Notes under the pieces: model-generated
What the model was told of the DNA's origin: nothing
Seen by the model: only the letters and a program-made list of their open reading frames with translations
The model's database searches: none
Translations under genes and position numbers: made by a program
Shown: in pieces, positions 3,101 to 23,292 of the stretch
How positions within the stretch are numbered: the stretch's first letter is position 1
Layout: each line of letters starts with the position of its first letter
Origin: a virus
Taxonomy: Duplodnaviria; Heunggongvirae; Uroviricota; Caudoviricetes
DNA length: 23,292 nt
Strand: one strand, 5' to 3'
Virus record (IMG/VR): IMGVR_UViG_2541047850_000002

Positions 3101-3803
3101 TACGGCTCACCTGCTGGCTGCCGAACTGTTCCGAGTCCACCTGTACGCCGACCAGTGCCGTGTTCGGGTAGCACTGTTTCACATCGATGATTTCGGTGTA
3201 TGACGACCAGAGCGTTTTGTTCTGCAGCTGGTCTGTGGTGCTGTCCGGCGTCATCCTGCGCATCCGGATATTAAACGGGCGCGGCGGCAGGTTATCCACC
3301 ACCACCGAGGCCAGATACTGCGAGGTGGTTTTGCCTTTAATGGTGATGTCTTTTTCCGTCACCCAGCCACCATTACGCTGTATCTGAACCAGCAGGCGGA
3401 CTTCCGACGGATTCCGGTCACCCTTTGAGGTGGTTTCCACCAGTGCCTGCACACCGAAGGTAAAGCGCAGACGGTCGATGTTTGCCGACGTGATGGTGCG
3501 GGTGATCGGCGTGTCATATTTCACTTCTGTACCGAGCACCGTCTCGGAGCCGGAGGATTCAAAACCTTCCGGCGGTGTCTGCTCCTGCTCACCTGCCCGG
3601 AACACCACCGTGACGCCGGAGATGTTGGTATTCCCCTCACTGTCCAGCACCGGCGTACTGTTCAGCAGCACGCTTTTTAATCCATCCACCGGACCTTCAA
3701 TCGGCCCTTCGCTGATGGCATCAATCACACTCAGCAGTTGCGTGGACTTCAGGTTGTCCTTCGCTTCGCGCGGGGTATGCCCCTTACTGCTTCCTTTGCC
3801 CAT
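105..3803 (-). CDS. J: Tail tip / host specificity protein J (central tail fibre), 1232 aa
   Basis: N-terminus [37 protein letters not shown] matches my recollection of lambda J; large size; position at distal end of tail operon after I. C-terminal ~250 aa look divergent from lambda (receptor-binding region). Confidence 0.93.
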
Positions 3804-19495: not shown

Positions 19496-19963
19496 TTATC
19501 TGAGACATTGCTCACGAATGTATAGCTGTGCCCCTTCCAGTTGCTTCTGCATCGTCATCAACCGTTCTCTGAGGGTGAAATAATCCCGTTCAGCGGTGTC
19601 TGCCAGTCTGGGGCTGGTTGCATTATCCACGCTGGTGGGTCCGGTGGCTTCACGCACGGCTGCGGAGCAACTGGCATTGACCCGCAGGCGCTTACGACCA
19701 GCGGCAACATCAGCGCGCAGAGTTTCATTTTCAGCTTTCGCATTGGCTAATTCTCTCGAGTACTTTGCATCGAGCGCAGCAACATCACGCTGACGCTGTT
19801 GCATGTCAGCGATGGTGGCAGTCGCCTGCTTCAGCTCACTGACTTTTTTATCACGCTGTTCTTTGTAGGCGATGGCGTTATCACGGTAATGATTCAGCCC
19901 CAGACTAAGCGCACCACAGGCCACCAGCAGGGCAATGATGACCACGCACAGTACGCGGTTCAT
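19496..19963 (-). CDS. Rz: Spanin inner-membrane subunit Rz (i-spanin), 155 aa
   Basis: N-terminal TM helix (VLCVVIIALLVACGALSL), coiled-coil body, embedded Rz1 in +1 frame; downstream of endolysin. Confidence 0.88.
   Translation of the reverse strand: MNRVLCVVIIALLVACGALSLGLNHYRDNAIAYKEQRDKKVSELKQATATIADMQQRQRDVAALDAKYSRELANAKAENETLRADVAAGRKRLRVNASCSAAVREATGPTSVDNATSPRLADTAERDYFTLRERLMTMQKQLEGAQLYIREQCLR
19558..19743 (-). CDS. Rz1: Spanin outer-membrane lipoprotein subunit Rz1 (o-spanin), embedded in Rz; likely start at MKLCALML (19728)
   Basis: Lipobox LVVSAC, proline-rich mature region (PQPCVKPPDPPAW), entirely within Rz in a different frame. Confidence 0.75.
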   Translation of the reverse strand: MRKLKMKLCALMLPLVVSACGSMPVAPQPCVKPPDPPAWIMQPAPDWQTPLNGIISPSENG

Positions 19964-19964
19964 T

Positions 19965-20063
19965 TCACCACCAGCGTATCTGACCGATGAAATAACCGGA
20001 GGCCATAATCACAAACACCAGCCAGATAAGAATGAACTTCCAGGTGGATAATTTTTCAGCCAT
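19965..20063 (-). CDS. Tiny ORF (32 aa from ATG, MAEKLSTWKFILIWLVFVIMASGYFIGQIRWW; up to 45 aa from upstream GTG at 20102) with one TM-like helix, stop 1 nt before Rz ATG
   Basis: Hand-translated from minus strand; TGA stop at 19967..19965 then A then Rz ATG (translational coupling geometry); AGGAG lies 3 nt upstream of the GTG at 20102 (tight spacing). Confidence 0.3.
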   Translation of the reverse strand: MAEKLSTWKFILIWLVFVIMASGYFIGQIRWW

Positions 20064-20140
20064 CACTCGAATATCCCGAATCAGTTTGCTAAAATCAAAC
20101 ACACTTTCTCCTTTGACTTTTCCGGAGTCAGGAAACACAA

Positions 20141-20169
20141 AACCCCGCTTGGTGCCAACAAACGGGGTT
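20141..20169. terminator. Bidirectional terminator-like hairpin (AACCCCG...CGGGGTT) in endolysin-Rz gap
   Basis: Seen in sequence: + strand AAAACCCCGCTTGGTGCCAACAAACGGGGTTTTTACTTTTATT; T-rich on both sides. Confidence 0.4.
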
Positions 20170-20261
20170 TTTACTTTTATTCACTTACGTTTCGCCAGTT
20201 CGCAGGATTTCATGTTATCCGCCCGCGTGGCCATGCCTTATTTTTCAGCAAAATATTCTGC

Positions 20262-20858: not shown

Positions 20859-21209
20859 TTAAGGTTGTGATTCCGGAGGAGTCTTCAGAGAACCAGTAAT
20901 TCTTCCTGGTAGCTTTCCTTTGTAGGTTATCCACACATTCTGCGCCTCTAAAATTACGGGGCGCTTTTCCGGCGACTGCTCATCCCCTTCACATAACCCG
21001 GCAGCAACATCCAGGAAGACCTGTCTGATGCTCCTTCTGGCTGCTGCCTCATAAAACCCCAGCGCGGCACCTTCAACACGGTCCAGCGAGATGTCCAGGT
21101 CAAAAATTTCACCGTCAAAGCGTTTTTTGTCCCGTAACGCTAAAGTTACCGTAACTTTATTCTCAAAATTGCGGATCCCTTTCACAATCAGTTCATAGTT
21201 CTGAGTCAT
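20859..21209 (-). CDS. DUF1327 (YdfR-like) protein, 116 aa, between holin and endolysin
   Basis: Sequence MTQNYELIVKGIRNFENKVTVTLALRDKKRFDGEIFDLD... resembles E. coli Qin prophage YdfR as I recall; same position (between essQ and rrrQ) as in Qin. Confidence 0.65.
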   Translation of the reverse strand: MTQNYELIVKGIRNFENKVTVTLALRDKKRFDGEIFDLDISLDRVEGAALGFYEAAARRSIRQVFLDVAAGLCEGDEQSPEKRPVILEAQNVWITYKGKLPGRITGSLKTPPESQP

Positions 21210-21213
21210 TGAA

Positions 21214-21429
21214 TTACTCTCCCCGTGCAGCCTTACGACGGTCCTCTCTGATTTTGAAATACAGGTTAGTCAGATATGTCAGGAAGCCCAGAACCAGACT
21301 CCCCAGTACACCAATCGCAGCCCACTGTGACGGACTGACCTGATCAAGCCACTGTAAAAACCAGTAGCCAGCACTGCCTGCGGAGGTGCCGTAGGCAATG
21401 CCCGTTGAAATTTTATCCATGGATTTCAT
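21214..21429 (-). CDS. S: Pinholin S21-like holin (71-aa antiholin form from MKSMDK; 68-aa holin form from internal MDK at 21420)
   Basis: Translation [71 protein letters not shown] matches my recollection of phage 21 S (dual-start motif); GGAGGTGA SD; ORF-track 104-aa version is an upstream in-frame extension. Confidence 0.85.
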
Positions 21430-21566
21430 AGCCTCACCTCCGCAGCGAACGGATGGCGTAGTTATAAGGGGAGCGAAAAAGAAAGAATGCGCGATTGCGC
21501 AATATGGTAACGTCAGGGTATTATCCACTGGCTGAATAGATCACTTCACGTTTTTTGTTCCTTGCC

Positions 21567-21594
21567 GCCCGTATCCATATGCGGGCTTTTTTTT
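21567..21594 (+). terminator. Intrinsic terminator oriented for + strand (GCCCG...CGGGC + T8)
   Basis: Seen in sequence: GCCCGTATCCATATGCGGGCTTTTTTTT. Confidence 0.45.
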
Positions 21595-21600
21595 GCATGT

Positions 21601-21630
21601 AAAAAGGCCCCAACACATGTGCGTGGGGCC
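21601..21630 (-). terminator. Intrinsic terminator oriented for minus strand (GGCCCCA...TGGGGCC + T5), back-to-back with the + strand terminator
   Basis: Seen in sequence: minus strand GGCCCCACGCACATGTGTTGGGGCCTTTTT. Confidence 0.45.
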
Positions 21631-21830
21631 TGAGAGTATACATGGTTTCAGTCAACTGCATGGTGCCGGGTGCCTCCCGGTGAATTCAGTACCAGCACCT
21701 GAATCCGCGATTATCCCATATACCTACTCGCTGATTGCCCCTCCGCACAGGGGGATTCACCATGCCAGTTTCTTTTAACAAACTCCCCGCAAAACAGACA
21801 ACTGTCAACCGTCTGAATTGTGAGACATTT

Positions 21831-21856
21831 AAAAAAAAGGCCCGCAAAAGCGAGCC
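21831..21856 (-). terminator. Intrinsic terminator immediately 3' of the tRNA cluster (7-bp stem with one G-U, UUUU loop, T8)
   Basis: Seen in sequence: minus strand GGCTCGCTTTTGCGGGCCTTTTTTTT. Confidence 0.5.
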
Positions 21857-21870
21857 GGGAAAAATAAGTC

Positions 21871-21947
21871 TGGCGCGTTGTACTGGATTCGAACCAGTGA
21901 CCGATTGCTTAGAAGGCAATTGCTCTGTCCGGTTGAGCTAACAACGC
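21871..21947 (-). tRNA. tRNA-Arg (anticodon UCU), CCA encoded, 77 nt
   Basis: Hand-folded cloverleaf: acceptor GCGTTGT/ACAACGC, D-arm GCTC/GAGC, anticodon stem ATTGC/GCAAT with loop CTTCTAA, T-arm ACTGG-TTCGAAT-CCAGT, discriminator G, CCA. Confidence 0.85.
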
Positions 21948-21960
21948 AGGGTACAGATAA

Positions 21961-22037
21961 TGGACCGCCATCGAGGACTCGAACCCCGCGCAACCAGCTT
22001 CGAAGGCTGGTGCTCTATCCTGATGAGCTAATGGCGG
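21961..22037 (-). tRNA. tRNA-Arg (anticodon read as UCG), CCA encoded, 77 nt; atypical C1-G72 acceptor pair
   Basis: Hand-folded: acceptor CCGCCAT/ATGGCGG, D-arm GCTC/GAGC, anticodon stem CCAGC/GCTGG with loop CTTCGAA, T-loop TTCGAGT; anticodon assignment by hand only. Confidence 0.7.
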
Positions 22038-22044
22038 TATGTGA

Positions 22045-22120
22045 TGGTGGCCCTTGCTGGATTTGAACCAGCGACCTGGCGATTATGAGTCGCTCGCTCT
22101 CACCACTGAGCTAAAAGGCC
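22045..22120 (-). tRNA. tRNA-Ile2-like (anticodon CAU, lysidine-type) or tRNA-Met; ileZ/ileX-like, 76 nt
   Basis: Hand-folded; sequence GGCCTTTTAGCTCAGTGGTGAGAGCGAGCGACTCATAATCGC...GGTTCAAATCCAGCAAGGGCCACCA closely resembles E. coli ileX as I recall it. Confidence 0.8.
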
Positions 22121-22146
22121 GGGCCGAAAATAATAATCAGATGAAA

Positions 22147-22860
22147 TCAAAAATCAAGCCCTTGCATAGATACATATCTGTCTGGCGGGAAGCCATAATA
22201 GCGGTGAAATACAGAGATAAAGTAGGATCTACTTGAATAACCGCATTTTGCTGCTACAGCCTGTCCATATCCATGCCGGGAACATAACATATTTACAGCA
22301 ACCCGCATCCGTTCCTCAAGTAACAAATTACTGAACCTGAGACCTTCATCCTTGAGTTTTTTCTTTAACAAGCTCTCACTCATATGCAACTGTAGAGCAA
22401 TCGCACCAAGCGTCCAGCTTGCTGATATATCTGTTTGAATTATCGCTCTGACTTTGGCACTTATACTGGATACACATCCACTTAAAAATAATGACATCCG
22501 TTCATCTGATTCAAACAGCGACAGGCAGGCCATCATAAGAAACATATCCGTGGTCTCTCCGGAAAGTCTCTGACTGGTAATTAAAGCCACAGTCAACGCA
22601 GGATTGTTGGGTTCCAGCAACAAGTAAAGCGGAATGTCAGTCAGAGGACCTCTCGTCAGCTTATGCTGGCTTTCCAGATATTGACTTACTATAGAATGGC
22701 TTATATCGACAATTTTAACTTTGCCATAATGCATAAGGAAAAGCTCCCTGATGCATTTGGTGGCCAGAACGACTGAGCCGGGCTTAAGTGACAATGTATC
22801 CTTTTCAAGAAAAATATTAATTGGGGAACAAACCATGATAACTGAACAGATAGCAGTCAT
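22147..22860 (-). CDS. AraC/XylS-family transcriptional regulator, 237 aa, AT-rich (moron)
   Basis: C-terminal dual HTH signature typical of AraC family (...LLKKKLKDEGLRFSNLLLEERMRVAVNMLCSRHGYGQAVAAKCGYSSRSYFISVFHRYYGFPP); visibly AT-rich relative to phage genes; own promoter-like sequence upstream. Confidence 0.8.
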   Translation of the reverse strand: MTAICSVIMVCSPINIFLEKDTLSLKPGSVVLATKCIRELFLMHYGKVKIVDISHSIVSQYLESQHKLTRGPLTDIPLYLLLEPNNPALTVALITSQRLSGETTDMFLMMACLSLFESDERMSLFLSGCVSSISAKVRAIIQTDISASWTLGAIALQLHMSESLLKKKLKDEGLRFSNLLLEERMRVAVNMLCSRHGYGQAVAAKCGYSSRSYFISVFHRYYGFPPDRYVSMQGLDF

Positions 22861-22895
22861 TATAATTTTACTTTAATTAGCAATCGGTTAGCTTA

Positions 22896-22926
22896 ATTAT
22901 AGCCCCAAAAAGTAAATTCTCATCAA
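22896..22926 (-). promoter_or_regulatory. Putative sigma70 promoter for the AraC-family gene (-35 TTGATG, 19-bp spacer, -10 TATAAT)
   Basis: Seen in sequence on minus strand: TTGATGAGAATTTACTTTTTGGGGCTATAATTAAGC, ~35 nt upstream of the ATG. Spacer slightly long; unverified. Confidence 0.3.
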
Positions 22927-22954
22927 CACATAAGCAAATGACTGACAGGTGCCG

Positions 22955-23194
22955 CTAACACCCACCAGCCGCCCATTTACCACAAATAAAAAAGCCTTCA
23001 GGACTGAAGGCGTCTGTAACAACCGAACTGATAGTCTGCCAGACCCGCATAACCAGCTGGGTCAGTATTAACTGGCAGCGCTCGCGTGAAAGGTACGTAT
23101 TCTGCGCAATCTCCCCGACCGTCGCCGGTTCGGTGACGCTTAATTCATCAAACACAACTCTGGCGGTTTCTGTCATATCCTGCTGTTTTAGCAT
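22955..23194 (-). CDS. Small ORF (79 aa from ATG 23194, MLKQQDMTETARVVFDELSVTEPATVGEIAQNTYLSRERCQLILTQLV...) with HTH-like motif; alternatively a non-coding leader/terminator region
   Basis: HTH-like segment ATVGEIAQNTYLSRERCQLIL; but a strong terminator-like hairpin lies inside the 3' end of the ORF ~40 nt before the stop, which argues against full-length translation. Confidence 0.35.
   Translation of the reverse strand: MLKQQDMTETARVVFDELSVTEPATVGEIAQNTYLSRERCQLILTQLVMRVWQTISSVVTDAFSPEGFFICGKWAAGGC
22986..23011 (-). terminator. Intrinsic terminator-like hairpin (GCCTTCAG...CTGAAGGC + T6)
   Basis: Seen in sequence: minus strand GACGCCTTCAGTCCTGAAGGCTTTTTTATTTG; could be tR'-like terminator of a short leader transcript. 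Confidence 0.4.
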
Positions 23195-23233
23195 GTCTTT
23201 TTCCCTTTTCCGGTTAACGTGACACACCAATAA

Positions 23234-23292
23234 CTATTGTCGAAAAAGCCAGCAAGCTGAAAGACAGGTATTCACCGCCACCAGCGCGTTTA
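23234..23292 (-). CDS. 3' end (last 18 codons, ...NALVAVNTCLSACWLFRQ*) of an upstream gene running off the window; identity unknown (position is where a Q-type antiterminator would be expected)
   Basis: Open frame from window edge to TAG at 23236..23234 on minus strand; positional inference only. Confidence 0.2.
   Translation of the reverse strand, partial: NALVAVNTCLSACWLFRQ

Follow-up and report, generated by a model that had tools for sequence, protein, structure and literature searches.

Convergent small RNA (sRNA) pairs have been described downstream of pR′, at the moron site, in prophage Sp5 and seven further Sakai prophages, eight in all (Tree et al. 2014, PMC4104026). For AsxR and AgvB, which are members of such dyads, targets have been demonstrated (PMC4104026). 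The moron concept itself goes back to Juhala et al. (2000), as cited in PMC4104026. In Shiga toxin 2 (Stx2) phages, STnc100 sits downstream of stx2B and overlaps the Hfq-bound EcOnc27/sRNA103 (PMC12711010, PMC7873438, PMC12370729), and STnc100 is related to PasD of enteropathogenic E. coli (EPEC) (bioRxiv 10.64898/2026.05.13.724894). EcOnc42 was validated by Northern blot, and its targets are listed as unknown (PMC7873438). Pearl Mizrahi et al. listed EcOnc08, EcOnc21 and EcOnc42 as the enterohaemorrhagic E. coli (EHEC) homologues of an EPEC RNA; this RNA is bound by Hfq and forms chimeras in RIL-seq (ligation of interacting RNAs followed by sequencing) with the leaders of cfa (767) and dppA (197), with tir and with others, which share the target motif GGCAAGG (PMC8550237 supplement). 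Here we compare with these systems the tRNA–holin region (positions 21,430–22,120) of the virus record IMGVR_UViG_2541047850_000002. The window is the whole stretch of DNA that was analysed (23,292 nucleotides).

The region is very probably the accessory block typical of lambdoid (Stx-type) phages, which lies between their Q-dependent late promoter and their lysis genes and is here devoid of protein cargo. Read along the minus strand of the window, the direction of late transcription, the block consists of a promoter-driven tRNA unit with its terminator, an empty moron point, an STnc100 gene with its terminator, an opposed EcOnc42-type sRNA gene and the holin gene (Table 1). Every component comes from a described family and the whole arrangement was described in 2014, so that no new kind of element is present. 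Only the diverged plus-strand variant of the EcOnc42 type lacks annotation. The original prediction had read the interval of about 440 bp between the last tRNA and the holin gene as an empty toxin slot with back-to-back terminators, which could hold a small RNA. The last suggestion proved right. The two sRNA genes fill approximately 263 of the 441 bases, or 293 if the plus-strand gene's promoter is counted, and the slot shrinks to a point at about 21827–21835. The opposed hairpins are present, but they are the 3′-ends of two sRNA genes in a known arrangement (PMC4104026).

The minus-strand sRNA gene matched the Rfam covariance model of STnc100 with 140.2 bits against a gathering score of 47, and the match covered the full length of the model (positions 1–206 of 206). 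It has the same synteny, terminal terminator and full-length match as the known members of RF02076. It differs from the model by a deletion of 11 columns (positions 64–74) in an internal variable hairpin, and a 10-nt gap is seen against phage 933W. The 933W copy scored 208 bits, is 70% identical to the window copy and starts 75 nt past stx2B; in phage F039 STnc100 likewise lies 75 nt downstream of stx2B. The homology extends beyond the model, with 70% identity between 21827..21582 of the window and the 933W sequence beginning 42 nt past stx2B. The conserved block begins 33–41 nt upstream of the Rfam start and includes TTGACA (21808..21803). In prophage PP6 of EPEC E2348/69 (locus L126, 612–1985), the insertion of an ISEc13 transposase gene splits STnc100 within its conserved core, and the cargo-free junction beside the split gene is 99% identical to the window. 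The antisense EcOnc42-type sRNA of PP6 is still detected by RIL-seq despite the split, which fits an independent promoter of the antisense RNA.

By sequence comparison, the plus-strand sRNA gene is a putative diverged member of the EcOnc42/EcOnc21/EcOnc08 group and the counterpart of the EPEC sRNA "E2348C_1409.E2348C_1408.IGR". Among 121 STnc100 loci, 30 matched the plus-strand sRNA region of the window, 29 of them as full homologues, and 13 unique sequences were aligned. The hexamers TTGCGC and TATTAT and their 18-nt spacing were invariant in the 13 unique homologues, whereas the sequence of the spacer varied. ACUUCACGUUUU and UUCCUUGCCGCCCG were conserved across the same sequences, as was the terminator, where both partners of one base pair differed (A-U in the window copy and G-C in the main variant). 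Identity of the predominant variant is 100% with the EPEC sRNA and 99.1% with the VT1-Sakai (Sp15) copy, which lies antisense between stx1B and a nanS-p-like open reading frame (ORF). The window copy is about 75% identical over 103 nt to this EPEC/Nil3/VT1-Sakai variant. A search of 2.3 Gb with the EPEC query matched near-identical relatives of the window copy with E = 9e-8 and 1e-11.

The minimum free energy (MFE) fold of the plus-strand RNA was −17.4 kcal/mol with z = −3.8, and CUUGCC, the six 3′ bases of CCUUGCC, was unpaired just 5′ of the terminator. CCUUGCC is complementary to the RIL-seq target motif GGCAAGG, and the duplex prediction recovered a 9-bp seed match to cfa, although the total duplex energies were no better than those of shuffles. 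With respect to STnc100, the window copy has the same place and strand as EcOnc42, EcOnc21 and EcOnc08, with which it also has in common both promoter hexamers (−35 and −10), ACUUCACGUUUU, UUCCUUGCCGCCCG and the terminator. It differs from them in the loss of 5 nt from the U-rich tract, in its 5′-end and in the upper stem and loop of the terminator. The EcOnc42 group has no Rfam model, and the window variant carries no annotation in the records examined. It is conceivable, though rather doubtful, that the gene represents a distinct unannotated EcOnc42 allele whose seed is kept, whose 5′ third is different and whose U-tract is 5 nt shorter, and that these changes could shift its target or sponge specificity relative to the EHEC/EPEC allele. 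If this is true, commensal or extraintestinal pathogenic E. coli (ExPEC)-type lysogens such as B2.3 and ECOR13 would receive a prophage regulatory input unlike that of EHEC.

Other names for RNAs of this interval were considered and rejected. In the 121-nt stretch searched, the match of the plus-strand RNA to AgvB (RF02702) reached 11.9 bits against a gathering score of 56, and AsxR (RF02703) gave no match at E ≤ 10. A weak match to "anti-hemB" (17.3 bits) covered only a generic terminator. For the sequence beside the holin gene, PasA/PasC was tried, and by eye 21430–21540 showed no similarity to the partial PasA sequence of the PMC8550237 supplement.

The number of terminator-like hairpins in the scan, three against 1.2 ± 1.1 in shuffled sequences, was not significant alone. 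The hairpins were taken as real because of homology and conservation in the homologues, and not on the raw count. All three hairpins listed in the original prediction were recovered, two of them by scanning: the one that follows the tRNAs and the plus-strand one at 21567–21586, which the consensus scan detected together with a run of eight T. The minus-strand hairpin at 21630..21601 forms the last helix in the STnc100 match. On the minus strand at 21488–21501, just upstream of the ribosome-binding site of the holin gene, there is a further short GC hairpin, TGCGCAATCGCGCA, with a T-rich run after it. It overlaps the −35 hexamer of the plus-strand sRNA promoter and is kept in 933W, Nil3 and EPEC. 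This hairpin may be a third terminator of the sense strand, or merely a promoter element.

The pair has the layout of the described dyads. In 933W, the Rfam matches of STnc100 (3278–3483, plus strand) and AsxR (3485–3537, minus strand) abut 3′ to 3′, and in the window the 3′-end of the plus-strand sRNA abuts that of STnc100 in the same geometry. Upstream of AsxR, 933W has TTGCGC-18-TAAAAT in the same place as the window promoter. As in the Sakai dyads, for example EcOnc27/AsxR in Sp5, a sense STnc100-type sRNA and a short antisense sRNA lie between the late promoter and the holin gene with abutting terminators. Unlike in those dyads, the antisense partner in the window is of the EcOnc42 type and not AsxR or AgvB, and no toxin or esterase genes lie beside the pair.

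The moron point was located by alignment with 933W. Its stx2AB cassette (promoter, stx2A and stx2B; 1332 bp) replaces 2 bp between positions 21830 and 21827 of the window; 21830 is the last base before the cassette and 21827 corresponds to the base 42 nt past stx2B. Since the left and right 933W homologies adjoin in the window, the cassette maps to a single point, where the T-run of the tRNA terminator meets AAATGTCTCACAATTCAG. The placement of stxAB between the tRNAs and the holin gene in Stx phages, and its absence here, thus hold as originally described. Both flanks of the 933W stx2AB cassette were found in the window, but no remnant of stx itself: tblastn and blastn searches of the window for stx and nanS-p gave no match better than chance. 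stxA and stxB, which between the tRNAs and the lysis genes mark a Stx-converting phage, are absent from that position.

IMG/VR was scanned with the STnc100 core, which gave at least 120 loci in a redundant sample, and the spacing between this core and the last tRNA upstream of it was compared across them. The distances fell into discrete classes. The class of 103–106 nt comprised 33 loci (29 from IMG/VR, the window and three related loci). The other classes carried a 115–118-aa ORF with no Pfam match (725–727 nt), mostly a TerB-family protein with a DUF3927 membrane peptide (approximately 797–878 nt), a 142-aa ORF (842 nt), stx2AB (1434–1436 nt), or two small ORFs and TerB (1451–1453 nt). The commonest non-toxin cargo of the slot was a TerB-family gene (PF05099) followed by a DUF3927 membrane peptide of 54–55 aa (for example in loci L105, L056 and L034), and the 115–118-aa ORF was also common. 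For most classes the flank homology ended or resumed within 21824–21835, which bears out the proposed cargo hotspot. In the commonest TerB class (797–805 and 877–878 nt) only the left junction mapped at the slot, because the 5′ part of STnc100 was also replaced; in the 725-nt class, which has a different tRNA set, only the right junction did. Several cassettes end in a terminator-like hairpin with a T-run, and in one phage record a gene at the slot is labelled "TciB". As with other bacteriophage morons, a fixed site between conserved modules takes unrelated cassettes (stx2AB, TerB with DUF3927, ORFs without known function); in the window the site is empty.

The cargo-free junction is common. 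A 161-nt probe across it was covered to at least 80% in 1019 of the 5426 complete E. coli genomes searched, O157:H7 strains among them; the search can merge pieces up to about 580 nt apart, so that the 1019 could include a few small-insert alleles. Partial matches in E. coli genomes begin at 21835.

ARAGORN called exactly three tRNA genes in the window, and their anticodons, order and strand agree with those first read from the sequence, including the UCG anticodon and the C1-G72 acceptor pair of the middle tRNA. The Rfam tRNA model supported all three. The CAU tRNA is 98.7% identical to ileZ of 933W, 88% to ileX (tRNA-Ile2) of K-12 and 67.5% to metT/metU, and the core of its anticodon stem-loop is identical to that of ileX. 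The Prokaryotic Genome Annotation Pipeline (PGAP) labels an identical sequence tRNA-Ile, in line with the isoleucine assignment made earlier; the ARAGORN label "Met" merely follows from the anticodon. Judged by its sequence, the tRNA is presumably a tRNA-Ile2 that is lysidine-modified to read AUA. The trio is the ileZ-argN-argO cluster of Stx phages, as originally proposed: from the −10 part of the putative promoter pT through ileZ, argN and argO to the terminator, 22136..21830 of the window is 92.6% identical to 933W over 309 columns. Anticodons, order and the position between Q/pR′ and the lysis cassette are shared with 933W, Sp5 and relatives, and the trio is common to more than 300 phage records, mostly of Stx2 phages. 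In contrast to 933W, no stx operon follows the trio. The predicted promoter upstream of the trio is the counterpart of pT, which is annotated at the matching place in 933W, and differential RNA sequencing (dRNA-seq) in EHEC mapped a transcription start site that appears to drive these tRNAs (PMC7547250). The fold of the terminator that closes the unit was −14 kcal/mol with z = −3.2 against shuffles.

The wider context agrees with this position. The window stretch 21200–23292 (2,093 bases) is identical to the E. coli strain B2.3 (NZ_CM185023.1), whose prophage is of the RacR-type lambdoid type with HK97-like head genes. In that record the antitermination protein gene lies upstream of the trio and the holin gene downstream, that is, the trio lies between Q/pR′ and the lysis cassette. 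Upstream of the trio, homology to 933W stops at 22136, and the window has an AraC-family gene in place of the tR′ region; this gene and a frameshifted TrmB-like gene occupy that spot. In O104:H4 genomes, about 91% identity is seen from the tRNAs through the AraC-like gene and on to the end of the window. The phage record PhiR49_2 is 99.8% identical to the window over 22123..21150 and 100% over the tRNA–holin interval.

The holin, a putative pinholin as named in the original prediction, belongs to the phage 21 S family, and its gene is the first lysis gene 3′ of the sRNA pair. Beyond it, in the late direction, lie genes for a YdfR/DUF1327 protein, a lysozyme and Rz. The lysozyme and Rz genes are separated by approximately 300 bp (19964–20261) in the window and overlap in PhiR49_2. 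The only content of this spacer is a 57-aa ORF with a hydrophobic C-terminus (19965–20138, minus strand), which is unannotated in the RefSeq record. A 61-aa Rz1-like lipoprotein ORF, MRKLKMKLCALMLPLVVSAC..., lies at 19558–19743 (minus strand) in another frame inside the Rz gene (19496–19963, minus strand). This is the usual spanin arrangement, and the RefSeq record has no annotation for the Rz1-like ORF.

Table 1. Features of the tRNA–holin region and its surroundings, listed in the direction of late transcription.
Feature	Position	Strand	Evidence and remarks
Antitermination protein gene	just beyond the window end, upstream in the late direction		NZ_CM185023.1 annotation
TrmB-like gene, frameshifted	22955-23230	minus	between the antiterminator gene and the AraC-family gene
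AraC-family helix-turn-helix (HTH) regulator gene, 237 aa	22860..22147	minus	PF00165/PF12833 matches
Predicted sigma-70-like promoter, TTGATT-16-TATTAT	22157..22130	minus	promoter scan; 10 nt upstream of the first tRNA; activity predicted
tRNA, anticodon CAU, ileZ-like	22120..22045	minus	ARAGORN; Rfam tRNA model 70.3 bits
tRNA-Arg(UCG), argN-like	22037..21961	minus	ARAGORN; Rfam 56.2 bits; 933W argN annotation
tRNA-Arg(UCU), argO-like	21947..21871	minus	ARAGORN; Rfam 70.1 bits; 933W argO annotation
Intrinsic terminator closing the tRNA unit	21829..21856	minus	scan: stem 21856..21839 and T-run; homologue in 933W annotated as "terminator upstream of the stx genes"
Unoccupied moron insertion point	21827..21835	none	terminator T-run meets AAATGTCTCACAATTCAG
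STnc100 (RF02076) sRNA gene, including terminator hairpin 21630..21601	21794..21595	minus	Rfam covariance model
EcOnc42-type sRNA gene, about 63 nt, convergent with STnc100	21532..21594	plus	start predicted from the promoter; seed-like CCUUGCC 21560-21566; terminator 21567-21594
Predicted promoter of the plus-strand sRNA, TTGCGC, 18-nt spacer, TATTAT	21495..21524	plus	conserved in homologues; activity predicted
Class II (phage 21 S-type) holin gene	21214..21429	minus	PF04971 122.2 bits vs cut-off 26; PGAP "class II holin family protein"

Annotators have called small proteins in the interval: a PGAP pseudogene at about 21617–21775 (plus strand) in NZ_CM185023.1 and a 46-aa ORF at 21521–21661 (minus strand) in PhiR49_2 (PV340570.1). 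Mechanical ORFs of 45–77 aa do exist there and overlap the tRNA, the terminators and the sRNAs; one of them, of 68 aa (21735–21941, plus strand), matches phrog_27294 with E = 1.4e-45. That the interval encodes a small protein is nevertheless highly improbable. No interval ORF had a Pfam match. The 68-aa ORF runs antisense to tRNA-Arg(UCU) for 71 nt and crosses the T-run of the terminator; it is truncated, frameshifted or undetectable in 12 of the 33 cargo-free loci because the length of an A/T run varies, and each cargo insertion interrupts it. Inside the other ORFs, indels of 1, 5 and 10 nt were seen when Nil3 and 933W were aligned with the window, and the DNA is accounted for by structured RNA genes. 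These ORFs were therefore rejected as shadow ORFs. An ORF antisense to the start of the holin gene (21398–21535, plus strand) matches phrog_19985 with E = 1.2e-12. Both phrog_27294 and phrog_19985 look like clusters of ORFs mis-called on conserved non-coding or antisense DNA; for the former, shadow ORFs on conserved tRNA DNA are the simplest explanation. The PGAP pseudogene and the "hypothetical protein" of PhiR49_2 are likely mis-annotations.

The presence and adjacency of both flanks of the 933W stx2AB cassette, and the coexistence of cargo-bearing and cargo-free alleles among close phages, would also suit a deletion scar, in which stx or another moron was once carried and lost and the hairpins are functionless leftover flanks. 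We consider this quite unlikely. No remnant of stx or nanS-p is left at the DNA or protein level, and the recurrence of this junction, in 33 of the 98 surveyed that have a tRNA upstream as well as in the 1019 complete genomes, indicates a stable, common allele. Both sRNA genes are intact, with a full-length covariance model match, conserved hexamers and terminators, and a past loss of cargo would still leave flanks that are functional genes. Cargo may have been lost here or may never have been gained. The hairpins might instead serve only as insulators that shield the lysis genes from tRNA read-through and antisense transcription, with the RNAs as by-products. Three terminators packed into approximately 300 bp just upstream of a holin gene whose product is lethal would suit such a role, as would the lack of a demonstrated function for STnc100 and EcOnc42 in any strain (targets of EcOnc42 unknown in PMC7873438) and duplex predictions that were not significant. 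This alternative is also unlikely: about 200 nt of STnc100, including internal helices, are conserved beyond the needs of a terminator, and the plus-strand RNA has its own conserved promoter, superfluous for an insulator. Its homologues are bound by Hfq and have reproducible RIL-seq partners with a target motif complementary to CCUUGCC, and AsxR and AgvB of the related dyads have demonstrated targets (PMC4104026). Insulation and trans-regulation are, moreover, compatible.

Several observations weigh against the reading of the region as an accessory block with two regulatory RNA genes. Transcription, Hfq binding and targets at this locus are drawn from homologues that are 70–78% identical, and the survey of loci rests on a redundant sample. 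In the duplex predictions (RNAduplex) with the cfa and dppA leaders, 67–171 of 300 dinucleotide shuffles were equally good. The plus-strand RNA scored below the Rfam thresholds of both curated anti-sRNA families. The MFE fold of the window copy of STnc100 was only modestly better than shuffles (z = −2.0). For STnc100, no acceptable −10 hexamer of a sigma-70 promoter was found 16–18 bp past TTGACA; a TGnTAAAAG element sits 25 bp from it. The RNA might be processed from upstream transcripts instead of having its own promoter.

Taking the accessory-block reading, we propose the following scheme. In a lysogen, the tRNA unit and both sRNA genes would be transcribed independently from their own promoters, and the three terminators would stop transcription from running into the lysis genes or from one unit into another. 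The tRNAs may supply decoders for the rare AUA, AGA/AGG and CGN codons. Both sRNAs would associate with Hfq and pair with mRNAs of the host and of prophages, in the plus-strand case probably through CCUUGCC 5′ of the terminator. Upon induction, Q-modified RNA polymerase would pass all terminators and transcribe the genes of holin, endolysin and Rz/Rz1. Cargo such as stx2AB could be gained or lost at the junction by recombination of the conserved flanks, that is, the tRNA-terminator and STnc100.

The seemingly "empty" region between the tRNAs and the holin gene holds two putative regulatory RNA genes, which annotation pipelines leave blank or mis-call as hypothetical proteins. The insertion site of the toxin genes can be narrowed down to a few bases. 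The cargo-free allele, present in about one-fifth of complete E. coli genomes, provides a baseline for judging whether a prophage could acquire stx by recombination at its conserved flanks.

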